A stretch of 64,000 nt of DNA from Candidatus Yonathbacteria bacterium RIFCSPLOWO2_01_FULL_43_27 (lineage in GTDB: Bacteria; Patescibacteriota; Minisyncoccia; Phycocordibacterales; UBA1550). Shown here in pieces: positions 1 to 56,375 of this stretch. A program made the translations under genes and the position numbers. The DNA lies in contig MHUV01000005.1 in NCBI GenBank assembly GCA_001823545.1, positions 15,910 to 79,909 on the forward strand. Reading direction: 5' to 3'. Below the pieces are notes generated by a model. That model ran no database searches. It was not told the origin of the DNA and worked only from the letters and a program-made list of their open reading frames with translations. The first letter of the stretch is position 1, and every line of letters starts with the position of its first letter.

Positions 1-773
1 CCAACGCCATTGAGAACTCTACTCTAACTCTCAAGGAAACCGAGAAAATTCTTTTGGATATGGAAGTCTCACGGGATGTTTCCTTGCGTGAAGTCTACGA
101 GGCCAAAAACTTGGCTCGTGTTATCGGGTACATTCGTAATAAGAGCAAGGAGACGGAAGCGAACAAAGAGACGATTCTACTTTTACACCAGATGCTTATT
201 GGTGGAATTGACGACAAGATTGCTGGCCGTTTTAGAAAGCTTGGTGAGTATGTTCGTGTTGGAACCCACATAGCCCCGGCACCGGAACATGTTGAACGAA
301 TGATTGAGGCGATTATTACTGAGTACACAGGTGATCTATCTAACTACTTTTTAGACAAGATTGCCAAATTCCATTTAGATTTTGAAACCATCCATCCATT
401 TAACGATGGCAACGGCCGTATTGGCCGTGTACTTATTTGCTTCCAACTGCAACGTCTCGGTCTTCCTATAATTATTATCCGTGATCGCGAGAAAAAAGAA
501 TACTACAAATCTTTTGCTGAATACCGTGACAAACATAATGCCAAGACGATGGAGAAAGTTATTGCCTTAGCATTAATGGAATCATTAAATAAACGAAACA
601 CATATCTCAAGGGCCAGAAGGTTATTACTCTGTCTGAATATACAAGAAATAACAACTTGTCTGCCTCAGGAATGACTAATGCTGCTCGTCGTCAAAACAT
701 TCCGGCTTTTCGAGAAAAAGGTGTTTGGAAAATTGGCGAGGATTTTATTTATAACTCTCACAAAGAAAAATAA
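1..773 (+). CDS. fic: Fic/Doc family protein (adenylyltransferase-like), 5'-partial (reading frame open to window start)
   Basis: The canonical Fic motif HPFxDGNGRxxR is present as HPFNDGNGRIGR. The N-terminal region reads ...NAIENSTLTLKETEKIL, and there is no in-frame stop upstream to position 1. Confidence 0.8.
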   Translation, partial: NAIENSTLTLKETEKILLDMEVSRDVSLREVYEAKNLARVIGYIRNKSKETEANKETILLLHQMLIGGIDDKIAGRFRKLGEYVRVGTHIAPAPEHVERMIEAIITEYTGDLSNYFLDKIAKFHLDFETIHPFNDGNGRIGRVLICFQLQRLGLPIIIIRDREKKEYYKSFAEYRDKHNAKTMEKVIALALMESLNKRNTYLKGQKVITLSEYTRNNNLSASGMTNAARRQNIPAFREKGVWKIGEDFIYNSHKEK

Positions 774-957
774 AAGCGGTATTTACCCCGGGGCAAGCCC
801 CGGACAAAATGTTGTTCACTTCGTTGTTATGGGTCTTTTTCCGCTGAAAAAGCCCGCTACCCCACCTCGCGCCGTAGCGCTCTGGTCTTGCGAAACTCCA
901 TGTATTCGCTTCTCACACATTTACCGTCCCAGAGGGGCGGGGTATTATACCCTTGTA

Positions 958-1023
958 TTAGCTCCTCGGCTCGGAAATAAGAAAGATTACTTTCTCACTT
1001 CGCTCGCTCTACGTCGCTAATAA
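958..1023 (-). promoter_or_regulatory. Leader-like conserved element, copy A (homologous to the lysS 5' leader); no downstream gene
   Basis: About 85% identical to 14771..14834. In minus orientation it contains a 12-bp hairpin followed by CCGAGCCGAGGAGCUAAU, but only a 14-codon ORF follows. Confidence 0.4.
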
Positions 1024-1036
1024 ATATAGACGATCA

Positions 1037-1066
1037 AAAAGCGCCCTTTGGGCGCTTTTTTGTTTT
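1037..1066. terminator. Bidirectional rho-independent terminator
   Basis: GCGCCC-TTT-GGGCGC hairpin flanked by A-run and T-run. Confidence 0.6.
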
Positions 1067-1068
1067 TA

Positions 1069-1628
1069 CTATTTTATCACCTCTTCCAGCAACTCAGGAA
1101 ATTTTTCGGTTTTCATATCGTTAAAACAGAAGTGACCGTAGTTTTGAAAATCTCGAACAACGATATTTTTTACTTTGTTTTTTATAATTTCTACACTCTT
1201 TTTCATTTCCTCATCATCGTCAGTAGAATTAAAAATTGTTATACCATTTGTTTTAGACACTACATTCTCGTCTATATTAAATTCAAACATCTGAGTATCC
1301 TCTGTTTTAAATGGGTTGATCCACGGTGCAACTAAAACTACCTACCCAACTTTTACATCATTTTCACTTAGGTAGCGGAGCAAGAAACCAGCCCCGCAAC
1401 TGTGACCAATGAGCTGAGTATCACTGTCAATAACAAACTGTTTAAAGACAGAACACCATTTGGCATAGTCGGGACTATACGGCTCGGGCATTTCTGGAGT
1501 TTGTGCAAGAACACCCTTCAGGATGAGCTGTTTTTGAATCCAAGGGATCCAATGCTTATTGGACGAAGATCAGGATTAAAGTACTCTTCCTTCGGCGGCA
1601 TACCGTGAATTATAATTGCTGTTTTCAT
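1069..1628 (-). pseudogene. YdeN/RBBP9-like alpha/beta serine hydrolase gene, disrupted by a frameshift and an in-frame TAG
   Basis: The minus-strand translation begins MKTAIIIHGMPPKEEYFNPDLRP, then shifts frame into NKHWIPWIQKQL...LIGHSCGAGFLLRYLSENDVKVG. An in-frame TAG at 1342-1344 follows, and the same frame then continues VVLVAPWINPF...MFEFNID.... The HWxPWL and GHSxG motifs are those of the YdeN family. The total span of 560 nt is not a multiple of 3. Confidence 0.6.
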
Positions 1629-1762
1629 ATAGATGATTTTAGCGGGAAATACGCAGTTTTGCTAGTAAGTTAATATTTAATCAAAAGCTCTTGACCCATC
1701 CTTCCGTTCGCGTGTGGATAAAACCCAGCTCGTAAAGACGAGAGGAGTGAGGGCGGGGCTCC

Positions 1763-4531
1763 CTAGTCAATATTCAATTTTTGCATTCGTTTTTTAAGTG
1801 CATCTCCGCCCCCCTCAAGAATACTCACAATATCATCTCTAATCTGTTTATATTCAATTCCACCGTTGTGATATTTGAGATTATTGTTTTCATTTTCCGC
1901 AACTATCACATTCTCAGAGTCGGTTAGTAGTAAAAGATTAGGACTATGGGTCGCCACTATCACTTGACGTCTTTCTTTCTGGTCTAATACAAGCTTTCTT
2001 AGGTCATTTGAAATTCCGGAGACATCGATATCATTTTCTGGCTGATCAATAATTATCGGATATACACTTTTTGACAGATTGAATATGAGATCCAAAAGTG
2101 CCATCGCTTTCTGTCCACCAGTCATATTTTCAAAATCTATCAATTCCTCGCCATTCTTATATTTAACAGATTTTGTGAAATCAATATCATACCTACAGCT
2201 CAACAATGTCAGCAATGCACTCTCCTTATCACCACCTGTGACCTTCAATTTTGCAGTAGATGCATCAATGACAATATCTTTAATAATTTGAACTATTTCA
2301 GATTTATCAAAATCCCTTTTTTCATCAAAAAACTTTTTGAAACGGTCCCCAGATCGTCCATCAATATACACATCAAAAAACCTACTCTTATATTCATCTA
2401 CACTGTAACTCACTGTAAAATGGAATGTTATGAAAGTAAAATTATCAAATGCATCTTTGAGAGTTTGAACTATTCCCTCAATTTTGCTCTTAAAAGATAG
2501 GTACAAATCGGCTACTTCGTCAATTACTACTTCTTCTTTTTGACCAAATTCTTTGACAAATTTATCCAGTTTTTCTATCTCTTTTTTCTCGGCACTAAGC
2601 TTGTTTATTTCCTTTAGTATTTTTTCAATGGTTTTATTTTGCTGTAATTTCTCTGTTATTGGAACTAACTCTTTTTCGACAGTAATTTTTCTATCTTTTT
2701 TATTTTTAGTCTTTGACGCCAAGTCATTTAGCAACTCACTTAAATACTCTTTGATTTCTTGACCAGAAAGTTTTTCAATATGCTTTTCAATTAACTCTAA
2801 GGTTATCTGAGATAATCCAAAGAACACTTCACTGTCAACTGTGATGAAATTTACATCACTACCGCTATTGATGTTCTTTATAATCTGGAAATCTTGCTCC
2901 AATAACTTAATTTCTTTGATAAGTGATTCTATTTCCGAAAAATATTTTGTTTGATTTTCAATATCCGCGTCGGTTATATCAATCTTTCCAATCTTATTAA
3001 TTTCTTCTTGTTTAATTTTTATTGCACTGTCTTTATCTTCAGATTTCCCAAGTGGTTTTAGCTGGCTAGTTGTATCTACAATCTGCCTATGTGTACTTAG
3101 TGCTTCTTTAACTTTTGCATTAATTTTTAGTTCTATCGAATCTACAGCATCAGTCTTGCTTGTATCGGCGTTTTTGAATAAATCATTATTGAACAACCGC
3201 GCCTTGAGCATTTCGTCTCGTTTATCATAGTCTCTACCATCTTCATAAGTGATAGTCGATAGATAGTTTTGTGGTATGAATTCAACAAATTTATTCTCAG
3301 AGGTATCGTCGTACCAATGAATTTTAAAATCTTGTAACTTAAATATCTTTTTAACGTCAGGTTGTTCTTGCTCGCCGAGCACATTAAAAGCAATATGTTT
3401 GAGTAAAACAGATTTTCCGGCACCCCGTTTACCAATAACAGAATTTATATCCTTGTTAAAATAAATTGTGTGAATTTTACTGTTTTGCTTATATTCCACT
3501 CTGTCGATAAAAAGTTCTGGAGATGAATTTTTGTTTTCTGAGGGGTTTCTTTCTTGTATTAAAACTCTGTTTGCATAATCTACAACTACTTGTCTTAGTG
3601 TCTCAAAAGTAGTATCTCCCTTAATCCATGTAAAACAATGCCCTAAATCTTTAGGATTGGTATTAAAAAAATCAAATTTTACAACACCCTCATCTCCTGT
3701 TTGTTTAATAGTATGTGCATCACTGCAATGTAATAAACGACTATTTGCTGATTGAGTGTTTAATGAATCTATATTTTTATTTGTTTGCTTTGCACTTGGT
3801 GAAGCAGAAAAAACAATATGAGCATTGTTGATTATGTCCTTTTTGTCTACAGGAGACCCTGTCCACCTAAAATCTTCCCATTCTGATTTTCCAATAGCTT
3901 TTATATATTTACCTCTTAGATATGTGTTTGGTTCCTTTATCTCACCTAGACATTCTTTGAGTTTATCGAGACTGTAGCTTAAATTATTAAAGCCTATTTC
4001 AAAGTGATTATCGCTCTCTCTTTTATCTTCTGGAGTAGTGTCATATACATGTTTACCAAGATCAATTAAACTTTCTCTTGTAACAACTCCGCCCCAAGTG
4101 GTGCTACCCACATTATTCACATCAAGGTTGCATGATGATCTAAAACAATTTAAAAACTGTGCTTCTATTGTTTCAATATCAAGAATGCTCTGTTCCGCAA
4201 AGATAACATGGTAGTTAATTTTTTTTAATTGCTCATTACCCACAAACTCCTTTAATCTAAATTCTACAACAGGCAAAATTAAATCTATATTTTTCAGTCT
4301 GTTCACATTTTTATATTCTATTACTTTTTTGTAACCATCCAGAAACAGATAATCGTTAATACCTATAACTTTTATATCTTTGGGCAAACTTTCTAATCCA
4401 TTAATGAAATTCTCCCATTTTTTTTCTTCTGTCGCACCGGGATACTCCGATGTATGAGAAAACGGCGTGTGAACATGCAAATCCCACTTTCTCCATTCAG
4501 ACCCTTTGTTGTATTTTTGATCCTCTTCCAT
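1763..4531 (-). CDS. PHP-domain phosphoesterase fused to Rad50/SbcC-like coiled-coil ABC ATPase (candidate defence nuclease-ATPase)
   Basis: The N-terminus carries the PHP motif WDLHVHTPFSHTS. A Walker A (GKRGAGKS) is followed by a long K/E-rich coiled-coil segment of roughly 300 aa. The C-terminus carries an ABC signature (MTGGQKAMALLDL), Walker B (IIIDQPENDID) and H-loop (VATHSP). The start at Met56 of the ORF lies 4 nt after the stop of the upstream gene. Confidence 0.7.
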   Translation of the reverse strand: MEEDQKYNKGSEWRKWDLHVHTPFSHTSEYPGATEEKKWENFINGLESLPKDIKVIGINDYLFLDGYKKVIEYKNVNRLKNIDLILPVVEFRLKEFVGNEQLKKINYHVIFAEQSILDIETIEAQFLNCFRSSCNLDVNNVGSTTWGGVVTRESLIDLGKHVYDTTPEDKRESDNHFEIGFNNLSYSLDKLKECLGEIKEPNTYLRGKYIKAIGKSEWEDFRWTGSPVDKKDIINNAHIVFSASPSAKQTNKNIDSLNTQSANSRLLHCSDAHTIKQTGDEGVVKFDFFNTNPKDLGHCFTWIKGDTTFETLRQVVVDYANRVLIQERNPSENKNSSPELFIDRVEYKQNSKIHTIYFNKDINSVIGKRGAGKSVLLKHIAFNVLGEQEQPDVKKIFKLQDFKIHWYDDTSENKFVEFIPQNYLSTITYEDGRDYDKRDEMLKARLFNNDLFKNADTSKTDAVDSIELKINAKVKEALSTHRQIVDTTSQLKPLGKSEDKDSAIKIKQEEINKIGKIDITDADIENQTKYFSEIESLIKEIKLLEQDFQIIKNINSGSDVNFITVDSEVFFGLSQITLELIEKHIEKLSGQEIKEYLSELLNDLASKTKNKKDRKITVEKELVPITEKLQQNKTIEKILKEINKLSAEKKEIEKLDKFVKEFGQKEEVVIDEVADLYLSFKSKIEGIVQTLKDAFDNFTFITFHFTVSYSVDEYKSRFFDVYIDGRSGDRFKKFFDEKRDFDKSEIVQIIKDIVIDASTAKLKVTGGDKESALLTLLSCRYDIDFTKSVKYKNGEELIDFENMTGGQKAMALLDLIFNLSKSVYPIIIDQPENDIDVSGISNDLRKLVLDQKERRQVIVATHSPNLLLLTDSENVIVAENENNNLKYHNGGIEYKQIRDDIVSILEGGGDALKKRMQKLNID

Positions 4532-4535
4532 AATT

Positions 4536-5618
4536 CTATTTTCCAGACTTAGTTCTGTTGTCTTGCTTGCACAACATTTTGCAGTTTGTCGCGATTGTTT
4601 TCCCTCCCTCATGCCAAGGCTTAATATGATCCGCTTCCATTTCCTCGATCTCAAAGCGCTTTTTACACTTAGAGCAAATGCCTTTCTGTCTCTCATATGC
4701 CTCGCGCTTCATTTTGTCATTAAAGGCGCGGATATTTAACGCTCTTTCACTCCCAGTCAAAACATATTCGTAGATGCCAGACTTTTTAGTTACATCCTCA
4801 TCTTGCATCAGCTTTGTTATTTCTTTTTCCAATTTCTTAGCATCAAATTCTTTACCTTTTACTTTGTTGTATAAAGTTCCAAAAGGCACGCCTTTCATTT
4901 CCTTGCGATAGTTAGGAAAAACCGCCTTGACCCAATTTATTACACTCTGAAAATAAAGCCATAATTCGTTGGCGTTAGGTTTGTGCTGATGGTCTGCCAT
5001 GTATTGTTCAATTTTTCCATCGCTTATCCAATCTATTGTAGTTTCTAGGTAGTCTTGGCGGATTGCTGAACCATTTAAATAATCACTTCCAATGTTATAA
5101 GCGGGACAGCCAGTTTTACTAAAGTGTCTTTTTGCATCAGTTAGCCAAGTGCCAGTATAAATAGCATTTCTCAATTCTTGATCTGTTAATTTTTCCCCAG
5201 CAATGTTTATCGTCTTAAACCAATCCAATTTTTCTTTATCATTTCCTTCGCAGAAGTAAATCATCAGCTTGTAATTAAGAATCTGCTCTTTTTCGGTTTC
5301 TTCAAGATTGTGAAAATATTGGAAATTTAAGGAGAATTTACCCGCTATATATTCGCAAATACTTATAGTTCTTTGCTGTCCATCCATCACTTCATAAGTT
5401 CCATCTTCACTTTCAACCCAATACATTACATTCAAAGGAAAATTCTTTCTGACAGTTTCGATGACGGCATCTCTTTGATGATCCTTATAAACGAATTCTC
5501 TTTGATATTTAGGGCGGATATTTAATTTTCCACCATACCCAACAACACCTTCCTCGTTGTCATTAACATATTTATTTGAAACTTCTTTAATTGTGATTTC
5601 TTTTAGTTTAATTTTCAT
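4536..5618 (-). CDS. DUF262 (ParB/GmrS-like NTPase, DGQQR motif) fused to C-terminal HNH endonuclease
   Basis: The DUF262 signature DGQQR is present as VMDGQQRTISICEY. The C-terminal HNH motif reads EADHIKPWHEGGKTIATNCKMLCKQDNRTK. The probable start MKIKLKEITIK has an AGGA upstream. Confidence 0.75.
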   Translation of the reverse strand: MKIKLKEITIKEVSNKYVNDNEEGVVGYGGKLNIRPKYQREFVYKDHQRDAVIETVRKNFPLNVMYWVESEDGTYEVMDGQQRTISICEYIAGKFSLNFQYFHNLEETEKEQILNYKLMIYFCEGNDKEKLDWFKTINIAGEKLTDQELRNAIYTGTWLTDAKRHFSKTGCPAYNIGSDYLNGSAIRQDYLETTIDWISDGKIEQYMADHQHKPNANELWLYFQSVINWVKAVFPNYRKEMKGVPFGTLYNKVKGKEFDAKKLEKEITKLMQDEDVTKKSGIYEYVLTGSERALNIRAFNDKMKREAYERQKGICSKCKKRFEIEEMEADHIKPWHEGGKTIATNCKMLCKQDNRTKSGK

Positions 5619-5622
5619 AAAT

Positions 5623-6723
5623 TTATATTTTCCTATTTCTAATAATGACTCGAGCATAAATGCTTGAATATAGTTCTCCTGTTTCAGTATCCTTAAACGC
5701 AGGCGTTTTATCTGTTAGTGGATTGTATAAACGATATAATGTGCCTTTTGCGTTAAACGTATATTTTCCAGTAGGTGCCCCACTTTTGTCCAAAATCTCC
5801 ATTTTTTTATTAGAAGCAAAATCAATTGATCCAATTATTCCTAAAGCAACTAATTCAAATTGATCAGGACTGTACTTGTCCAAAAAAGTAATAGGAACAC
5901 CAATAGCACCCTTATAATCCACAGGAATATCTTTTGTTACATCAACATTTATAGCATCATAATTTTTATATTTGGGATATTCATTTTCATGTCCGTGATA
6001 CTCTTTATAAAGTATCAAGTCGTCGTGGCGTTCTTTATAATCCAAATTTGTAAACCAACGAACACCCTTAACTCGAATAAATTTATTTCCATTTTCATCA
6101 ATTCTATTTCCAGCAGAATTCAGAGGGTAAGATTCTGGAACTCTAAATTCCCTATCCCCGCTATGTATGCTTTGACCAAGCCAAATTTTGTTCTCCTTGA
6201 TCAATTTGAAAGTTTCTTTATAAGTTATAGCGTTCAAATTGCCGATAATAATAAATTTCTTTTTGTATTCAAATAATTGAGCTAGATATTCTCTAAATAA
6301 TGAAAAAGGTGGATTCGTAACAACAATGTCCGCTTCTTTTAGAATTTCAACACACTCGGGACTTCTAAAATCACCATCCTGTTTTAGTGGGGTTTTGATT
6401 GTATCTAATTTATTTATTTTTCCATCTTTATTTGTGTCTTTTACAATTTCCAATTTATAAGGCGATTCTTTTGTAAGCAAATTTGCATCTTTGTAATGAG
6501 TAGAGATGAGCTTCTTTAGTCCAAGGAATTCAAAATTTAAAGCAAAGTAATTCCAAAAATTGCTTTCTTCTGGGTCATCGCAATTACAAAATATGACTTT
6601 ATTTTTTAAGTGATCTTTATAATTTTTTAATTCTTTTTCAATATCAGACAACTGTGTATAAAACTCGTCGCTTTTTGCTCGGTTTGCCGTCTTTAAGTTT
6701 GCATTTGAGGATTTCTTTTTCAT
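5623..6723 (-). CDS. N6-adenine DNA methyltransferase (NPPF catalytic motif; EcoRI-methylase-like N-terminal DEFYT motif)
   Basis: The catalytic tetrapeptide NPPF appears as VVTNPPFS, with KSDEFYTQL near the N-terminus. It is the first gene of the minus-strand operon, downstream of an AT-rich promoter region. Confidence 0.65.
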   Translation of the reverse strand: MKKKSSNANLKTANRAKSDEFYTQLSDIEKELKNYKDHLKNKVIFCNCDDPEESNFWNYFALNFEFLGLKKLISTHYKDANLLTKESPYKLEIVKDTNKDGKINKLDTIKTPLKQDGDFRSPECVEILKEADIVVTNPPFSLFREYLAQLFEYKKKFIIIGNLNAITYKETFKLIKENKIWLGQSIHSGDREFRVPESYPLNSAGNRIDENGNKFIRVKGVRWFTNLDYKERHDDLILYKEYHGHENEYPKYKNYDAINVDVTKDIPVDYKGAIGVPITFLDKYSPDQFELVALGIIGSIDFASNKKMEILDKSGAPTGKYTFNAKGTLYRLYNPLTDKTPAFKDTETGELYSSIYARVIIRNRKI

Positions 6724-7008
6724 AAAATTATTTCAAAAGTTCGCTACTGGAAATTCCTAAAGCTCCAGCGTTTTTTCAGCTACTTTTGACGATATATATC
6801 AGAGTAATACTCTTTATTATCCTTATTTTTACAATACTTTATCAAATTTAGTATTCTCATTTATGAGAGAGTTTAACACATTTTGTTACAGAAAACCACT
6901 TCAAAAAAAGGGCATAACCCCTTTCCCTACAATATCGACAATATACTAGAATAACAACAATTATGATCCTATTAAATTAAAAATTATTATAGTATAATTA
7001 AACATATT

Positions 7009-7545
7009 ATGAAAAAATTTCTAAGTGTTTTGGTACGAATATTGGTCACTATCATAATAGCTACTGGTGTTTGCTATCTCATATATTCATATAGTAGTAA
7101 TTGGCGATATCTTGATCAAAAGAATCTTGTTTTTACTGTTGAAGATGCGAAGGGCGGTGAAGCTTTTGATGTTGTTGTTACAAAAGATCAGTTTAGTAAA
7201 TTACCTAATGCAACGACAACGATAAATAAATTAAGAAAAGGCGTTTATTCGAAAAATTGGGGAAATGAGGATACTTTAGTTGTAAAAGCAGTTGACTGGT
7301 ATAACTGTGGAGCTGGTCAAATATGGGGAAGTTATAAAATCGAAGACGATAAAATAACCATATTTAGTGGTAAAAAAAGTTTTGGACTCAAATTAATAAA
7401 CGTAGCAGAGGCTTGTATATATAGCTATGTGATGACCTACGAAATTTCAAATCTTGAATATAAAGATTACCAGATAACATATGTTCGGGCGCCTTACAAG
7501 CGAGGCTTTTTTGATTCCTTCATACCACAACCACGCTCCTTGTAA
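7009..7545 (+). CDS. Hypothetical membrane-anchored protein (N-terminal TM helix)
   Basis: A 178-aa ORF with a hydrophobic N-terminus (LVRILVTIIIATGVCYLIY). It is transcribed divergently from the methyltransferase operon and is AT-rich. Confidence 0.45.
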   Translation: MKKFLSVLVRILVTIIIATGVCYLIYSYSSNWRYLDQKNLVFTVEDAKGGEAFDVVVTKDQFSKLPNATTTINKLRKGVYSKNWGNEDTLVVKAVDWYNCGAGQIWGSYKIEDDKITIFSGKKSFGLKLINVAEACIYSYVMTYEISNLEYKDYQITYVRAPYKRGFFDSFIPQPRSL

Positions 7546-7587
7546 TTAAAGATGGGAGTTGTTCATATTAAAAACGAACAAGGAACA

Positions 7588-7744
7588 TTGACTCGCTTCG
7601 CTCGCCTCACTTTGTGTGGTCACAAATCACTAACCTACGGGGAAGCTCGCGATGTTCGCGGATCGGTCACAGATATTTTTCTGCTGAAAATAAATATATT
7701 GACTCGCTCCGCTCGCCTCACTTTGCGTGGTCACAAATCACTAA
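7588..7744. repeat. Two 46-nt direct repeats (7588..7633 and 7699..7744) plus hairpin motifs of the form TTTTTCnnnnGAAAAA
   Basis: TTGACTCGCTTCGCTCGCCTCACTTTGTGTGGTCACAAATCACTAA is repeated with 2 mismatches. Related short motifs recur at 829-853 and 7805-7825. Confidence 0.6.
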
Positions 7745-7847
7745 GTATAATTTTTCGCTGCGCTCAAATTCTACGTAAGTGTTTGCCGACCCCGGCTCGG
7801 CAATTTTTCTTCTGAAAAATTATGCCTGCGCCTTCACAAAAGCGAAA

Positions 7848-7872
7848 AAGACTGGAGCAGTCCAGTCTTTTT
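7848..7872. terminator. Rho-independent terminator (bidirectional)
   Basis: AAGACTGGA-GCAG-TCCAGTCTT hairpin followed by TTTTT. Confidence 0.6.
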
Positions 7873-7887
7873 ACTCTCACGCTTTTG

Positions 7888-7959
7888 TGACCCTACGGGG
7901 AATCGAACCCCGGTTTAAAGCTTGAAAAGCTTCTGTCCTAACCGTTAGACGATAGGGCC
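7888..7959 (-). tRNA. trnE: tRNA-Glu (anticodon UUC)
   Basis: The cloverleaf has acceptor GGCCCTA/TAGGGTC, anticodon stem GAAGC/GCTTT, loop TTTTCAA, T-arm CGGGG-TTCGATT-CCCCG and discriminator A. CCA is not encoded. Confidence 0.8.
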
Positions 7960-8067
7960 ATCCTTATATAAAACATAACAACAAGCCATTGAACAATATG
8001 ACTGTTTTATGCTCTTAAATAACTTTTGCAGTATACCAATTTTTGCCAAAAATGCAAAAATGATGTC

Positions 8068-9360
8068 CTACGAGCGTGCTTTCCACTCGGGCTCTTGGCG
8101 TACGAGGGTGAGATATGCCTTTTCTGGGTGTTGCATAAGTTCTTCTACAGCGCGCTCCATACGCATCGCCTGTGAACCTTTTACGAGGATTACATCTCCT
8201 TCTTTCAACATCCCCTCGAGGTACTTCCCTGCCTTTTGTGCATCATCAAACTCAAGAATATGCTTTTCGCTCATACCGCCTTCGAGCGCGCCCTCGGCAA
8301 TATACTTTGCCCGTGGGCCAACCGCGAAAAGCATATCTGCATTTTCTCCTACCGCAATGCCAAGCTTTTTATGTTCATCGACAGCAAATTTACCAAGCTC
8401 GAGCATATCACCCAAAACGGCAATCCTACGCGCCTTGGTCTTCACATCGCCAAGCACGAGCACTGCAGCGAGTGCCGCAGAAGGTGACGAGTTGTAAGTA
8501 TCATCAATAATGGTTGTGTTTTTAATACCCTCAATCACGCGCATACGGCCAGGGGGACTTTCATGTGCGGAAAGCGCATTTATACTATCCACAATATTCA
8601 GTTTCAAGTACGTGCCAACCGCAAGCGCTGCGAGTGCCGCATACACCGGCTGGGTACCAAGAACACCACGCACGGTCACGGGGAACGTATTACCGTTATA
8701 CTCAAGCTTAAACGTCGTACCTACGGGACGACTTTTTTCATACACAATGTGCGCATTGGTTGCGCGGAACATTGCCTGCTCGTCAAAACCAAAGGTAATA
8801 ACGCGTGCTTTGGTTTTTTCACGGAGCGCAAGCACGCGTTCGTCGTCGGCATTCAGTACGAGCATGCCCGTCTTTTTTAACCCTTTTACAATTTCTTCTT
8901 TTTCTTCAAAAAGTTCTTTGACTGATTTAAAAAACTCCACGTGTGCCGGCACGTCCCCAAAGTATGTCATCACGACAATATCTGAGTGCATCCATTTTGC
9001 AATACGTGCAATATCCCCTGGTTTTCCCGCAGCAATTTCAAGGACAAGCCACTTTGGATAATGCACGCGCGCCAGAAGCTGTACCAAACCGTGCACAAGG
9101 TTATTGAACCAGAGAACTGGATTTGCCCATGCATTTTCACAGCCGAGCACGGTGAGCGGAACACCGATCTCGCTGTTGAAACTCTTTGCACTTTTACGCG
9201 CAACGAGTGGGCGACCGATCACGGTAAAGATAGCATCCTTAGTAGAAGTCTTCCCTACACTTCCCGTTACAGAAACTATTTTTGGTTTATATTTACGAAG
9301 AACAAGTTTTGCTTCTCCTTCAAGGAGCGTGATAGCAAGAGGGCGTAAAAGTGATTTCAT
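8068..9360 (-). CDS. murF: UDP-N-acetylmuramoyl-tripeptide--D-alanyl-D-alanine ligase
   Basis: Mur ligase motifs VTGSVGKTSTK and DDTYNSSP are present, and the gene sits in the dcw cluster. Confidence 0.85.
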   Translation of the reverse strand: MKSLLRPLAITLLEGEAKLVLRKYKPKIVSVTGSVGKTSTKDAIFTVIGRPLVARKSAKSFNSEIGVPLTVLGCENAWANPVLWFNNLVHGLVQLLARVHYPKWLVLEIAAGKPGDIARIAKWMHSDIVVMTYFGDVPAHVEFFKSVKELFEEKEEIVKGLKKTGMLVLNADDERVLALREKTKARVITFGFDEQAMFRATNAHIVYEKSRPVGTTFKLEYNGNTFPVTVRGVLGTQPVYAALAALAVGTYLKLNIVDSINALSAHESPPGRMRVIEGIKNTTIIDDTYNSSPSAALAAVLVLGDVKTKARRIAVLGDMLELGKFAVDEHKKLGIAVGENADMLFAVGPRAKYIAEGALEGGMSEKHILEFDDAQKAGKYLEGMLKEGDVILVKGSQAMRMERAVEELMQHPEKAYLTLVRQEPEWKARS

Positions 9361-9420
9361 ATTTCAAAAGTAATACTTACAAAAAGTCAGATTGGTAATA
9401 CATACCGGCACATTCATTTC

Positions 9421-11136
9421 TTATCGATCGGGCGGTATCTCATAATAGTTTATCAGAAATTTCGCAATTTGCGTAAACGGTTTTGCGAGCGTATGTGATG
9501 CATACTGTTCTTTCTGAGGATTGCGCACGGCGAGAAAAACGACAAACTTTGGTGCGTACGAAGGAAAATATCCGACAAACGTGTGCAGATAATCCGTTTC
9601 AGAATATTTTCCATTTACCACCTGTTGTGCAGTTCCTGTTTTGGCGGCAATAGAGTAGTGCTCTTGTTTAAGGGAACCGTCGAGAAGTGCCGTGTCGACC
9701 GCCTTGGTCAACATACGAGAAATTTCTTGCGAAGTTTCTTTACTGATGACACGTCGCTCTCCCCCTGGAACAAACTCGCGTACCGACCCAAACCCGTATT
9801 CCACGCGTTTTACGACGTGCGGTGATACAAGCACGCCACCATTTCCCAGCGCGGCAAACGCGCGGATCGTCGCGATCGGGGTAAGTGAAATTCCTTGCCC
9901 AAATGATGCCGTCGCAAACTCGATATCACGATCACTATCAAGGTTCTCGAGGTTCCCTAACCCTTCGTTTGGAAGATCGATTCCTGTTTCCTCTCCAAGC
10001 CCAAATGACTCAAAATAGCTACGAAAACGCTCTTTTCCCAAGCGCTCCATTGCAAACGCTGAGCCAGTATTGAGTGACTGATTCAACACTACCTGCATAT
10101 TCACAACACCGCGCGCCTTGTCATCAAAGTTCGATATTTTTTTTGTATTGAAAATACGAAATCCTTTATCGTCGTACGTCGTCTGCGCGGTGATGACGCG
10201 CGCGTCAAGACCCGCAGCGATCGTAAATGCTTTTATGATTGATCCCATTTCGTACACGCCCTCGACAAGTGGATTTACAAAAACATTTTGATTGCGTTCT
10301 TTTGAAAAATTATTTGGGTCAAAGGAGGGTGTTGATGCCATTGCTACGATAGCTCCTGTTGTAGGATCCATAATAATCCCCATTGCTTGTCCTGCGTGAT
10401 ATTTTTTTAACACGTCTTCTTCAAGCGCGCGTTCGAGCATCCCCTGTACGGTTGGTTCGATGGTCATTACCAACTCCCCTGCACGAGCGCGATCGAGAAT
10501 AATAGCTTCTCCGGCTTTCAAAAAAAGGTTGGCAAAGAACCCTAGTGAACCATCCGCATCTTTACGAAAGAGTGTTCCATTATAATAGCGTTCGAGCCCA
10601 TACTGCCCTTCCACGGGGCCACCGTTCGAACCGATAAAGCCAATGACTTGCGACGCGGTACGTCCGAGCGGATAGAAACGCTTTTTATCTTTTTTTAGGA
10701 CGAACGCCTGTTCACCAAGTGCTTTAATCTGATCTGCCTCTTTCTCTGAAAGATGTTTTTTAATTTCCTTATATCGACTTCCTGTTTGTACTGCCTTTGC
10801 AATAAAATCTGCTCGGTCGAAGGAGTCTATGAATGGCGCGAGTTTATCCGCAAGTGCTTCTACACCACCCGCCTTTATGAGTGAGGGGTCAATCGCGAGC
10901 GTATAGTCAGGCACAACGGTTGCTGCAGAAATAGTACGTCCTGTTTTCTCTTCAAAGAAAATAGAGCCGCGATCAAAAAATCCGCCTTCAGGAAGCGTGT
11001 ATTGACGTTCTGCTTTTACACGATATGTTTCGCCCTGCACAATTTGAATGTAACCCAATTTAGCAACAAGAACAACGGTTAACAAAAGAATTCCCGTATT
11101 AATGAACCAAATGTTTCTCAGTGTGCCATTCTTCAT
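9421..11136 (-). CDS. ftsI: Penicillin-binding protein, transpeptidase (FtsI-like)
   Basis: SxxK (GSIIKAF), SxN (NQSLNTG) and KTG (AKTGTA) motifs are present, with an N-terminal TM helix, in dcw cluster position. Confidence 0.8.
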   Translation of the reverse strand: MKNGTLRNIWFINTGILLLTVVLVAKLGYIQIVQGETYRVKAERQYTLPEGGFFDRGSIFFEEKTGRTISAATVVPDYTLAIDPSLIKAGGVEALADKLAPFIDSFDRADFIAKAVQTGSRYKEIKKHLSEKEADQIKALGEQAFVLKKDKKRFYPLGRTASQVIGFIGSNGGPVEGQYGLERYYNGTLFRKDADGSLGFFANLFLKAGEAIILDRARAGELVMTIEPTVQGMLERALEEDVLKKYHAGQAMGIIMDPTTGAIVAMASTPSFDPNNFSKERNQNVFVNPLVEGVYEMGSIIKAFTIAAGLDARVITAQTTYDDKGFRIFNTKKISNFDDKARGVVNMQVVLNQSLNTGSAFAMERLGKERFRSYFESFGLGEETGIDLPNEGLGNLENLDSDRDIEFATASFGQGISLTPIATIRAFAALGNGGVLVSPHVVKRVEYGFGSVREFVPGGERRVISKETSQEISRMLTKAVDTALLDGSLKQEHYSIAAKTGTAQQVVNGKYSETDYLHTFVGYFPSYAPKFVVFLAVRNPQKEQYASHTLAKPFTQIAKFLINYYEIPPDR

Positions 11137-13290: not shown

Positions 13291-14769
13291 CTATCCTTGT
13301 TTTGGGCGCACAAGGGGGAATGCTTGTGTGTCGCGAAGTGGCTTATCAGAAAGAAAAGCAAACAATCGGTCACCAAAACCAAAGCCACACGTTGGAGGCA
13401 TTCCGTGTTCAAGCATTTCGACAAAATCCCAATCAGCCATCATTGCTTCTTTGTCTCCTTTTGCTAAAAGTTCCTGCTGAACTTCAAAACGCTTTCTCTG
13501 ATCGAGAGGATCATTGAGCTCGCTGTACCCCTTTCCTAACTCACTACCCGCAAGAATAGGTTGAAAGACTTGCGCCGTCGTGCCATCAATATTCTTTTTT
13601 GCAAGCGGTGCAACAAGGAGTGGATGATTTACCAAAAATGCGGGGCCAGCAATATTTTTTCGGCAGTACTTCCACAACGTATCGGTCAAACGTTCACGAT
13701 TATTGCCATCGTATTTTACTTTGAGCTCGGCGAGTTTATTCTTGATGTCATCATCAGATGCCGTAGCAAGATCAATGCCCGTTTGTCGCAATACCTCTTC
13801 TCGGTAATCAACTTTCCGCCATTCATCCGCAAGATCAAATGTATGTCCACGCGTCGTAAATGTTGTAGTGCCAAAAACCTCACGCGCAATCGTGCGATAG
13901 AGCTCTTGTACAAGCTTCATACCATCATCATAGTTTGCGTACGCCATATAAAATTCACAGTTTGTAAATTCTTGCATATGCTCAGGCGAAGAACCTTCAT
14001 TGCGATACACGCGACCAACTTCAAATGTTTTAGGAAACCCAGCGGACATCAATCGCTTTTGCCAAAGTTCACCAACAGAAATACGCATAAATACATCGAG
14101 ATCAAAGTCATTATGATGCGTCATAAACGGACGTGCCTCAGCACCACCGGTGGTAACCTCGAGCGTTGGTGTTTCAACTTCCAAGAAACCTTTCTCAATC
14201 AAAAAGGTTCGAATGGTTTGCCAAAATTTTGCCTTGCGTTCAAACATCTCACGAAGTTCTGGGCTCGTGAGAATATCGAGGTAGCGCAAACGAAGACGGA
14301 GTTCTTCGTCCTGAAGACCATGATATTTATCAGGAAGTGGGAGAAGTGCTTTTGAAAGCATCGATACGTCCCGTCCAAGAATACTTTTTTGTCCTGTTTT
14401 AGTAGCAAAGAGTATACCGCGTACTTCAATAAAATCTCCGATATCAACAAACCGTTCATAAAAATCACGAACAGATTCTGGTGTCTCGGGAAGCTTGATG
14501 ACGACTTGGAGTTTTGCGGTACCATCAAAGAGATCTGCAAAGATGAGTGCGCCTTGTCCACGTGACGCCATCACGCGTCCTGCCACGACTACTTCTTCTT
14601 CACGAGAAGCACGTGCATCAAAATCGTCTAAAATATCACGGATGAAATGAGTTTTTTGAGAAGTTGCTGGATACGCCGAAACACCCTCAGAGATGAGATC
14701 GTTTAATTTCTTCAAGCGCTCAGCGCGAATTTCTTCAAGAGAAGCCATGTGAGAATATACGAAATCCAT
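13291..14769 (-). CDS. lysS: Lysyl-tRNA synthetase (class II)
   Basis: Class II motifs are present, for example FEVGRVYRNEGSSPEHMQEFTNCEFYMAY, along with an anticodon-binding OB N-terminus. Confidence 0.9.
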   Translation of the reverse strand: MDFVYSHMASLEEIRAERLKKLNDLISEGVSAYPATSQKTHFIRDILDDFDARASREEEVVVAGRVMASRGQGALIFADLFDGTAKLQVVIKLPETPESVRDFYERFVDIGDFIEVRGILFATKTGQKSILGRDVSMLSKALLPLPDKYHGLQDEELRLRLRYLDILTSPELREMFERKAKFWQTIRTFLIEKGFLEVETPTLEVTTGGAEARPFMTHHNDFDLDVFMRISVGELWQKRLMSAGFPKTFEVGRVYRNEGSSPEHMQEFTNCEFYMAYANYDDGMKLVQELYRTIAREVFGTTTFTTRGHTFDLADEWRKVDYREEVLRQTGIDLATASDDDIKNKLAELKVKYDGNNRERLTDTLWKYCRKNIAGPAFLVNHPLLVAPLAKKNIDGTTAQVFQPILAGSELGKGYSELNDPLDQRKRFEVQQELLAKGDKEAMMADWDFVEMLEHGMPPTCGFGFGDRLFAFLSDKPLRDTQAFPLVRPKQG

Positions 14770-14770
14770 A

Positions 14771-14834
14771 TTAGCTCCTCGGCTCGGAAATGGAAAGAGT
14801 ACTTTTCATTTCACTCGCTCTACGTCGCTAATAA
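14771..14834 (-). promoter_or_regulatory. lysS 5' leader element, copy B: hairpin plus GGAGG RBS
   Basis: In minus orientation it reads UUAUUAGCGACGUAGAGCGAG-[GAAAUGAAAAG/CUCUUUCCAUUUC hairpin]-CGAGCCGAGGAGCUAAU-AUG(lysS). Confidence 0.5.
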
Positions 14835-39504: not shown

Positions 39505-39531
39505 GATGTTTTTTGATATAGCGTAGACAAC

Positions 39532-39570
39532 AAAAAGACCGACCTTTTCAGAAAAGGTCGGTCTTTTTGT
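39532..39570. terminator. Bidirectional rho-independent terminator
   Basis: AGACCGACCTTTT-cag-AAAAGGTCGGTCT plus TTTTT. Confidence 0.75.
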
Positions 39571-39587
39571 TGTCTGAATATCAGAAA

Positions 39588-56146: not shown

Positions 56147-56215
56147 ATATTATACTACATATCGCCCCAGAAAACGCAACATATGATTAATCTTACGAGG
56201 TAGTATTCTTCTAAT

Positions 56216-56267
56216 TTCTAGTATCGACGTATAATATACTATAGTATATTATACGTCGATACTAGAA
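56216..56267. repeat. Perfect 52-bp palindrome (26 + 26) with imperfect extension to about 56199..56282
   Basis: TTCTAGTATCGACGTATAATATACTA | TAGTATATTATACGTCGATACTAGAA; the flanks GTAGTATTCTTC / GAAGAAAAAATACTAC extend the symmetry. Confidence 0.9.
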
Positions 56268-56375
56268 GAAAAAATACTACATGAGCTAGTTAAATGTTTA
56301 AATTGATCTGCTCTCTCAGTATGATATACAGATATTCCACAAGGTGGGAATCTGGTTCGCAAAAGTTTTCTTGTG

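Follow-up and report, generated by a model that had tools for sequence, protein, structure and literature searches.

Whether the AT-rich block of restriction genes that adjoins a tRNA-Glu(UUC) gene in a Candidatus Yonathbacteria genome was acquired horizontally, and what a gene of the TrlF family is doing at the end of its operon, are the questions raised by the stretch of DNA considered here (contig MHUV01000005.1, positions 15,910 to 79,909 of the forward strand; 'the window' denotes this whole stretch of 64,000 nucleotides). The host comes from groundwater and belongs to the Parcubacteria within the candidate phyla radiation (CPR), for which mobile elements and immunity are poorly described. 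The interval 1650-7633 of the window is likely to be an acquired defence island, composed of a restriction-modification operon and a TrlF cassette, in a variable hotspot which begins just 3' of tRNA-Glu(UUC), where the conserved cell-division (dcw) gene cluster ends. An earlier note on this DNA, made from the letters alone, had proposed a horizontally acquired island beside a tRNA, and this core of the proposal is borne out by the composition of the block, its absence from 45 murF loci of relatives, the divergence of a strain-variant contig (L005) at the same junction, relatives of its modules with 86-88% nucleotide identity in unrelated CPR contigs, and a comparable arrangement in a genome of Nomurabacteria (L141). 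Directly observed are the composition and gene content of the block, its absence from relatives, its mosaicism and the repeated occurrence of TrlF inside restriction operons.

Composition and mosaic structure of the block

Over 1763-7545 the GC content is 0.326, compared with 0.433±0.012 (minimum 0.400) in 101 background windows of the same size (z about -9), and the dinucleotide distance is 97, compared with 32.5±9.7 (maximum 61.5), which makes this interval the extreme among the 5.8-kb windows on both measures. The four genes of the interval have a GC content of 31-35%, where 44 background genes have 44.1±2.2% (z -3.9 to -5.9), and their GC3 is 24-35% against 39.8±3.6% in the same background set (z down to -4.4). 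Composition and codon usage are thus strongly non-uniform, as anticipated by the earlier note and as is typical of a tRNA-associated island. The segment had been described as AT-rich from about 1050 to 7550; the AT-richness holds, but its left start does not, since low GC begins only at about 1763. The stretch 1050-1762 is 37-48% GC, and in sliding windows GC is 0.28-0.34 at about 2000-7250 and 0.42-0.50 in the murF/ftsI region. A YdeN-like pseudogene, a Fic gene and the genes p96 and p216, all outside the block, have GC contents of 0.37-0.49, near the backbone value, compared with 0.31-0.36 in the block.

The block is not syntenic among relatives, which agrees with what the earlier note had proposed to check. 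None of the 45 relatives' loci compared at murF, which comprise that of the nearest GTDB species representative (L008; MurF 95% identical in amino acids and about 87.5% in nucleotides) and 44 more distant ones, has the methylase, the endonuclease, TrlF or p178 near murF. L008 keeps murF, tRNA-Glu(UUC), the conserved short elements with one 47-nt unit, the YdeN-like pseudogene (82% nucleotide identity) and p151 (93%), whereas the methylase, the endonuclease, TrlF and p178 are missing at this locus. Instead, a different 2.2-kb segment lies between the repeat and the YdeN-like gene of L008, with a 48%-identical Fic gene in opposite orientation and ORFs of 71 and 198 aa. A second variable segment consists of Fic-p96-p216 in the window genome and of a single 124-aa ORF in L008. 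With two segments replaced, the whole interval from tRNA-Glu to p151 is to be seen as a mosaic, in which the decaying hydrolase gene is a shared relic. The two sides of murF differ in conservation: in a comparison of 28 loci, the median number of the 27 other loci with a homolog is 18 for ORFs upstream of murF and 0 for those downstream.

The block is itself composite. Nucleotide homology of trlF to other contigs is limited to positions 1769-4542 (86% to L053, 83% to L054, 78% to L141 and 73% to L055), while homology of the methylase-endonuclease pair together with its promoter is limited to 4512/4537-6776 (86-88% to L062, L064 and L065). The two modules abut within about 6 nt and homology stops at gene boundaries; judged from these boundaries, trlF has been added as a cassette of its own at the 3' end of the methylase-endonuclease operon.

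Alternatively, the block might be ancestral in this lineage and have been deleted or replaced in L008 and others, with AT-richness an intrinsic property of restriction-modification genes. The methylase-endonuclease pair is in fact AT-richer than its flanks at 17 of 18 other loci, so that the module itself accounts for part of the low GC; a single close relative, L008, is available for the presence/absence comparison, and losses do happen in the unstable region downstream of tRNA-Glu. These points are outweighed by the separate 86-88% identical relatives of the modules in unrelated lineages, with homology ending at gene boundaries: as the core genes are only about 50% identical in amino acids to those of the respective hosts, such relatives cannot come by vertical descent. 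As p178 and TrlF are equally AT-rich and the block occurs near murF in 0 of the 45 relatives, ancestral presence is considered quite improbable, and horizontal acquisition stays the preferred explanation.

With respect to gene content (Table 1), on which the earlier note is silent for the block itself, methylase, endonuclease and TrlF form one minus-strand operon with 4-nt gaps between the genes. The methylase scores 446 bits with PF13651 and carries an NPPF motif (within ...VVTNPPFS...) as well as a match to MTase_II of PADLOC (9.2e-119); the endonuclease matches PF03235 (3.6e-21), PF01844 (HNH; 1.4e-10) and, over its full length, REase_II of PADLOC (9.7e-145). Of 80 metagenome loci with the endonuclease (67-96% amino acid identity), 72 have an EcoRI-family methylase upstream on the same strand, mostly directly adjacent, and nearly all loci without a detected methylase have almost no upstream sequence, while TrlF is present at none of the 80. 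With a methyltransferase carrying an N6-adenine motif and a separate, adjacent endonuclease gene with an intact nuclease motif, the pair is, as far as can be read from the genes, a self-contained type II restriction-modification unit that is present in many genomes. Searches of the PDB with the sequences of TrlF, endonuclease and methylase gave marginal matches only (AriA and one HNH protein).

Palindrome counts offer a further view on restriction in this genome. In the island GGCC is absent with 4.3 expected, a weak signal, while AATT-type sites are not depleted; as a positive control, CCGG is absent with 7.1 expected at the HpaII locus of L053. In the backbone (8001-64000) CATG occurs 98 times with 186 expected (z about -8), a depletion not attributable to the system of the island, and ACGT, GGCC, CTAG and CCGG are also under-represented. 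As the backbone depletion suggests, the genome has been under prolonged pressure from restriction systems located outside the island, NlaIII-like ones among them.

The divergent gene p178 is a near-orphan: its sole match among 5.8 billion proteins is p178 itself, among 1.84 billion representatives one relative with 47% identity and weak partial matches were found, and Pfam, PADLOC, NCBIfam and PHROG gave no match.

Table 1. Features of the left end of the window, from the Fic gene to tRNA-Glu(UUC)
Feature	Position	Strand	Characteristics
Fic/DOC-family gene, class II type	1..773	+	HPFNDGNGRIGR motif; PF02661 9.7e-20; PADLOC PDC-S04/SoFic
GC-rich structured spacer, 262 nt	774..1035	-	RNA fold z -4.4 on minus strand; no Rfam match
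Hairpin terminator between spacer and hydrolase pseudogene	1036..1060		11-bp stem and T-run
YdeN-like serine hydrolase pseudogene	1069..1628	-	7-nt deletion and in-frame TAG
Left junction	1650..1762		L008 homology ends at 1649; trlF-cassette homology begins at 1769
trlF, 922 aa, last gene of the operon	1763..4531	-	Predicted N-terminal PHP phosphoesterase and SMC/Rad50-like ABC ATPase with long coiled coil
Restriction endonuclease, 360 aa	4536..5618	-	N-terminal DUF262/GmrSD_N (ParB-like) and C-terminal HNH
N6-adenine DNA methyltransferase, 366 aa, first gene of the operon	5623..6723	-	EcoRI_methylase family, PF13651 9.9e-134
AT-rich (about 28% GC) divergent intergenic region	6724..7008		Promoter-like sites for restriction-modification operon and p178
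p178, 178 aa, near-orphan	7009..7545	+	N-terminal membrane helix; GC 0.335; not in L008
47-nt direct repeat, copy 1	7587..7633		Directly abuts the tRNA-3'-end-like fragment
Fragment conserved in L008	7634..7670	-	95% identity to L008 6798-6834
47-nt direct repeat, copy 2	7698..7744		L005 diverges within, at 7727
Terminator just 3' of tRNA-Glu	7845..7872	-	Hairpin
tRNA-Glu(UUC), backbone gene	7887..7959	-	ARAGORN; Rfam tRNA 64.7 bits

TrlF in restriction operons

The last gene of the operon matches the model NF045780 (TrlF_fam_ATP) with 398.9 bits at a cut-off of 350, residues 9-919 covering positions 1-943 of the 944 of the profile, and by this curated cut-off its predicted product is a member of the TrlF family. 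In 30 homologs the PHP-type metal ligands D17, H19, H21, H108, D271 and H273 are invariant and E90 nearly so; equally invariant are the ATPase residues G372-K373 of Walker A, Q421, G806 of the signature, D829/E832 and H862, and the alignment holds the complete ABC-ATPase motif set of Walker A, Q-loop, signature, Walker B and H-loop. In the AlphaFold model (pLDDT 81.8) the ATPase head is split by a coiled coil of about 240 residues (helices 450-689), and the top fold matches are SMC, JetC, MukB, RecN, Rad50 and AriA, while residues 1-335, modelled separately, match the PHP domain of RNase AM (Foldseek E 7e-5, probability 1.0) and that of Pol III alpha. The protein thus combines the attributes of the family, a full-length score above the cut-off, PHP metal residues and an SMC/ABC head split by a coiled coil, and both its predicted nuclease site and its ATPase site are intact. 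The reading of its N-terminal part as a PHP nuclease domain has to reckon with a fold match of moderate confidence (pLDDT 68 at that E-value) and with a Pfam PHP model that is detected in one of the 30 homologs; as Pfam PHP is barely detectable, the call rests on motifs and fold, and a profile of the N-terminal domain gave no meaningful match in the PDB. A search of IMG/VR viral contigs with the single TrlF protein as query retrieved no relatives.

Among close homologs the association of TrlF with restriction is uniform. All seven for which the context was inspected (73-88% amino acid identity, the window included) lie within restriction operons, with a gap of at most 4 nt from the upstream gene in each of the seven. 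The partners differ in type: an EcoRI-family methylase and DUF262-HNH endonuclease in the window and L141, HpaII/Dcm in L053, DpnII in L142, type III Mod/Res in L143, and type I genes in L054 and L055/L056, where TrlF is inserted between hsdM and hsdS/hsdR. A literature search of open-access text retrieved no paper that describes this linkage.

The association loosens with distance, which weighs against a functional partnership: more distant homologs are not always beside restriction genes (L058, L060 and Klebsiella plasmids), so that the coupling may be mere co-location in defence islands. A distant TrlF in L059 adjoins an EcoRI/D12 restriction-modification pair and that on a Levilactobacillus brevis plasmid type I hsdR, while in L058 a Fic gene (6011-6934) lies directly upstream of a TrlF gene with 54% identity. 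On many Klebsiella IncF/IncR plasmids (L145) TrlF adjoins an AAA ATPase and UvrD-helicase pair (Gabija-like) and an Abi gene. On the Lactococcus plasmid pNP40 (L144, 12404-14944 of the record) it adjoins a DUF2130 gene, with cytosine methylases and Abi genes nearby. pNP40 is a classic phage-resistance plasmid; its TrlF gene is different from those of the named systems Rhea, Aristaios and Kamadhenu, which were considered as candidates and ruled out. In total, TrlF-family genes are annotated on 229 PLSDB plasmids, pNP40 and the Klebsiella plasmids among them.

On these grounds TrlF might be an independent single-gene defence that hitch-hikes in restriction operons for co-transfer and co-expression and does not depend mechanistically on restriction cleavage, in the manner of Ppl, a single-gene anti-phage protein of PHP exonuclease and NTPase. 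Ppl works as a single gene, the distant homologs adjoin Fic, Gabija-like or Abi genes without restriction-modification genes, the temperature restriction locus operon of Photorhabdus that includes TrlF also has none, and the pairing of the same cassette with types I, II and III argues against specific protein-protein contacts. On the other hand, seven of seven close homologs lie inside restriction operons with gaps of at most 4 nt, including positions between hsdM and hsdS/hsdR, a spacing that is tighter than ordinary defence-island clustering. Independent action is therefore regarded as a possibility to be taken seriously, with the balance somewhat against it.

The flanks of the block and the route of insertion

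On the right, the linkage of murF and tRNA-Glu is conserved across the order, with tRNA-Glu at most 3 kb downstream of murF in about 30 relatives; the anticodon of the murF-linked tRNA-Glu is UUC in this species and L008, whereas about 30 relatives at a greater distance have CUC. The block starts 3' of the tRNA gene, at a distance of about 250-340 nt, and is present or absent among close relatives, both being properties of tRNA-associated islands. The earlier note saw the right edge as bounded by two 46-nt direct repeats, a terminator and tRNA-Glu. These elements are present, the repeats being 47 nt long (45 of 47 positions identical, 111 nt apart, with no comparable match in 100 shuffles), but they do not bound the island, as both copies lie on its tRNA side. 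The end of the conserved fragment next to copy 1 (7634-7644) repeats 11 nt of the tRNA-Glu 3' end (TTCCCCGTAGG), and the L008 copy repeats 14 nt. The fragment 7634-7670 may be the scar of an att site, and the 47-nt units together with it might, tentatively, be scars of earlier site-specific events at the tRNA flank. A scan of 1-9000 with Rfam (E <= 1) finds the tRNA only, which indicates that neither the repeats nor the leader copy described below belongs to a known RNA family. In L008 p151 is followed by a tmRNA, which is missing from the corresponding place in the window genome.

The variability of this junction extends to the strain level. L005, a strain-variant contig from another sample, is 99.8% identical to the window until it diverges at 7727 inside repeat copy 2 and continues with a trypsin-like protease gene (L005 11635-12373), whose closest relative (95% nucleotide identity; L057 1-3469) adjoins the genes for the large and small subunits of a phage terminase. 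A prophage or phage-derived allele may thus alternate with the restriction-TrlF island at the tRNA-Glu junction.

Since the data are metagenomic, and L005 has a coverage of 2.9x and ends 740 bp after the breakpoint, the junctions might be artefacts of assembly or binning, with a foreign low-GC contig stitched beside tRNA-Glu. The window, however, is identical in sequence to Rifle groundwater metagenome contigs, and 18 or more contigs, which stem from independent samples and were built by independent assemblers, reproduce its arrangement at 99.8-100% identity; all contigs read for collinearity in ENA, JGI and NCBI assemblies (23 for MurF and 18 for TrlF) are collinear, and NCBI MHUP01000034.1 presents the same sequence apart from three short unaligned gaps and two mismatches. 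Identical junctions in assemblies of different samples by different assemblers exclude a misassembly of the window, and an artefact is considered extremely improbable.

Of particular relevance for the manner of acquisition is the Nomurabacteria Ike-200m-9 locus L141, in a genome whose MurF is 49% identical to that of the window. Within 2832-10066 of its 12 kb available sequence the order is tRNA-Glu(UUC), HTH, T5orf172, EcoRI-family methylase, DUF262-HNH endonuclease, TrlF and recombinase, the latter a large serine recombinase of 425 aa, with a ParB-methylase gene and a terminase-small-like gene also following TrlF. Endonuclease and TrlF share 78% of nucleotides with the window over 3.8 kb, the orientation of the block relative to tRNA-Glu(UUC) is the same, and GC falls from 0.50 to 0.32-0.41 across the block. 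The tRNA-Glu(UUC) gene concerned is not the murF-linked copy of that genome, and within the 12 kb there is neither an att repeat nor a second copy of the tRNA 3' end at up to 3 mismatches. The arrangement indicates that an element with a recombinase can carry such a block beside a tRNA of the same species.

On the left, the earlier note had drawn a partial Fic gene, a leader-like repeat and a disrupted YdeN-like gene into the edge of the island, but all three are outside the AT-rich block and part of the wider mosaic region. The Fic gene belongs to the second variable segment; it is complete in the source contig, with 300 aa and a GC content of 0.40, and is merely cut by the start of the window about 130 nt after its own start. 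Fic genes recur around the murF-tRNA-Glu junction (L022 3305-4150, L023 1644-2489, L008 7147-8049), and two genomes have homologs 63% identical to the window Fic in the interval from murF to the tRNA.

The leader-like repeat is confirmed: 955-1023 (minus strand) is a copy of about 65 nt of 14770-14834 (minus strand), the leader directly 5' of the start codon, at 14769, of an aminoacyl-tRNA synthetase of the tRNA-synt_2 family. The copy (repeat family D14) is invariant in alignment A3 over TTATTAGCGACGTAGAGCGAG...TTTCCGAGCCGAGGAGCTAAT and includes the GGAG ribosome-binding site, and no ORF lies downstream of it. The copy may represent a leader or regulatory RNA motif not recognised so far, or else what is left of a duplication, and it is unrelated to the boundary of the island.

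The disrupted state of the YdeN-like gene is confirmed, its repaired translation scoring 37.1 bits with PF06821 (Ser_hydrolase) at a cut-off of 22. It is 82% identical in nucleotides to L008 9083-9671, and as the L008 gene (9083-9677) has a different 7-nt indel, the gene has been inactivated independently in the two genomes; being common to L008, it is not part of the acquired block. A Ser_hydrolase gene is also found about 2 kb from TrlF in L059.

These flanking genes have a bearing on a wider reading, in which an integrative element or prophage, now decayed and without its recombinase, extends from tRNA-Glu to p151 and includes the YdeN-like gene, Fic, p96 and p216, the AT-rich block being only its cargo end. 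The segments on both sides of the YdeN pseudogene have been replaced between the window genome and L008, and the independent decay of the YdeN-like gene in both species suggests that it is dispensable. Fic genes recur in the neighbourhood and beside TrlF elsewhere, a Ser_hydrolase gene is near TrlF in L059, a serine recombinase and phage-like genes directly follow TrlF in L141, a phage-linked gene occupies the same junction in L005, and a tRNA-3'-end fragment is present. Yet the GC contents of YdeN, Fic, p96 and p216 are near the backbone and unlike those of the block, YdeN and p151 are backbone-like in being common to L008 at 82-93% nucleotide identity, and structural phage genes and a recombinase are lacking. 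The larger element is considered rather unlikely, and the acquired island limited to 1650-7633 is retained as the better description.

This description has to be weighed against several contrary observations. The island itself and the roughly 10 kb to each side of it have no gene for an integrase, transposase or recombinase; the search for an integrase just outside the window, which the earlier note had suggested, thus found none. Target-site duplications and terminal repeats are missing at the ends of the block, where only 9-11-mers at chance level occur, and repeats common to both ends, direct or inverted, do not exceed 11 nt. The duplicate of the tRNA 3' end, located to the tRNA side of the block, comprises only 11 nt in the window; a second copy of the tRNA 3' end with up to 3 mismatches does not occur in the window. 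Gain in this lineage as opposed to loss in L008 is deduced from composition and mosaicism, not from a dated phylogeny, and palindrome avoidance, counted in island and backbone, yielded no recognition sequence for the restriction pair. As to the route, we infer that the block was probably inserted either by site-specific recombination at the tRNA-Glu flank through a recombinase that is now lost or by homologous recombination via the conserved flanks.

Elsewhere in the window, 56203-56280 forms a palindrome of 39 nt in perfect register, 85% complementary and with abutting arms, and 39525-39575 a perfect inverted repeat of 25 nt, which is probably a terminator.

Relation to known defence systems and a possible role of TrlF

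As a genomic entity the finding is of a known kind, that of the acquired defence island in a tRNA-flanked hotspot, without an integrase and without attL/attR repeats that bracket it with the tRNA 3' end. It shares with such islands the outlying composition 3' of a tRNA, defence cargo, variation between strains and species, a mosaic of modules and a short duplicate of the tRNA 3' end, and it differs from them in lacking an integrase, bracketing att repeats and mobility genes within 10 kb, a recombinase being found only in L141.

The restriction-modification pair has in common with type II systems of the PF13651 methylase family the separate genes for methylase (with NPPF) and endonuclease in one operon, but its endonuclease is of the DUF262/GmrSD_N-HNH type and not EcoRI-like (PD-D/ExK). 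This architecture is more familiar from type IV enzymes that depend on modification, among them GmrSD, BrxU and SspE.

TrlF takes its name from the temperature restriction locus trlR-trlF-trlG of Photorhabdus, with whose TrlF the window protein shares the full-length NF045780 match and the fusion of PHP and SMC-like ATPase. The window gene differs in being the last of a type II operon; its neighbours are restriction-modification genes, and neither a RecG-like helicase (trlG) nor a small regulator (trlR) is encoded at the locus. In Photorhabdus itself the role of TrlF is not established, as no mutations mapped to it (PMC7554251).

With Ppl the window protein shares the order of domains and a weak but significant similarity in the C-terminal ATPase (PADLOC 6e-24, with two matched stretches, the best of which covers the C-terminal 145 or so residues of the 977-aa ORF queried). 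Ppl of E. coli shares its pair of domains with TrlF and is reported to be an end-sensing 3'-5' single-stranded DNA exonuclease (review PMC12904381), and an end-dependent exonuclease is by analogy a plausible activity of the window protein as well. An assignment of the latter as a Ppl equivalog was rejected, with 88.9 bits for NF042955 at a cut-off of 1000 and a gene that is embedded in an operon and does not stand alone.

PrrC and RloC, which are encoded in type I loci, provide a further parallel as ABC/Rad50-like ATPase-nucleases inside or at the end of restriction operons, a position occupied by TrlF in L054 and L055, and embedding in a restriction operon applies to seven of seven close TrlF homologs. 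The candidate nuclease of the window protein is, however, a PHP domain and not an anticodon nuclease; that TrlF is a PrrC/RloC-type anticodon nuclease was rejected, as scans with Pfam, NCBIfam and PADLOC revealed no such domain. A guard-type interaction specific to a single enzyme is unlikely, since the same cassette is paired with restriction systems of types I, II and III. A further parallel in architecture is Mre11-Rad50/SbcCD, which equally combines a metal-dependent phosphoesterase nuclease with an SMC-like ATPase and long coiled coil, with the difference that TrlF fuses both in one chain and has PHP in place of the calcineurin-like phosphoesterase.

From the parallel to Mre11-Rad50/SbcCD, and from Ppl with the same domain pair being reported as a single-stranded DNA exonuclease, we infer for TrlF a role in the processing of DNA ends. 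In such a scheme, the EcoRI-family adenine methylase would mark host DNA and the DUF262-HNH endonuclease would cut unmarked incoming DNA, upon which the SMC-like head and coiled coil of TrlF would engage DNA or DNA ends and its PHP domain would degrade them. TrlF would thereby finish off DNA that has been cut by the coupled restriction enzyme or, alternatively, act as a second, co-expressed layer of defence. That one cassette serves all three types of system is easier to reconcile with a generic substrate, for instance DNA ends, than with a specific protein partner. The tentative and rather doubtful extension of this scheme is that CPR TrlF is a portable module, agnostic to the type of restriction, that is exchanged between type I, II and III operons as an exact single-gene cassette and destroys restriction-made ends there, in the role that nucleases of the RecBCD type have elsewhere. 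If true, restriction plus a dedicated end-degrading nuclease would constitute a distinct composite architecture of defence.

The island is textbook acquired defence cargo in a tRNA-flanked hotspot, of which it provides a clean example from the CPR, and in itself is ordinary. The concrete and testable lead is the cassette-like recruitment of TrlF, a single gene with gene-exact boundaries of homology that among seven close homologs is found within every major type of restriction system. The TrlF family is widespread and named but uncharacterised, and the coupling to restriction, if functional, would give it a testable role and would bear on how small genomes dispose of restricted DNA.

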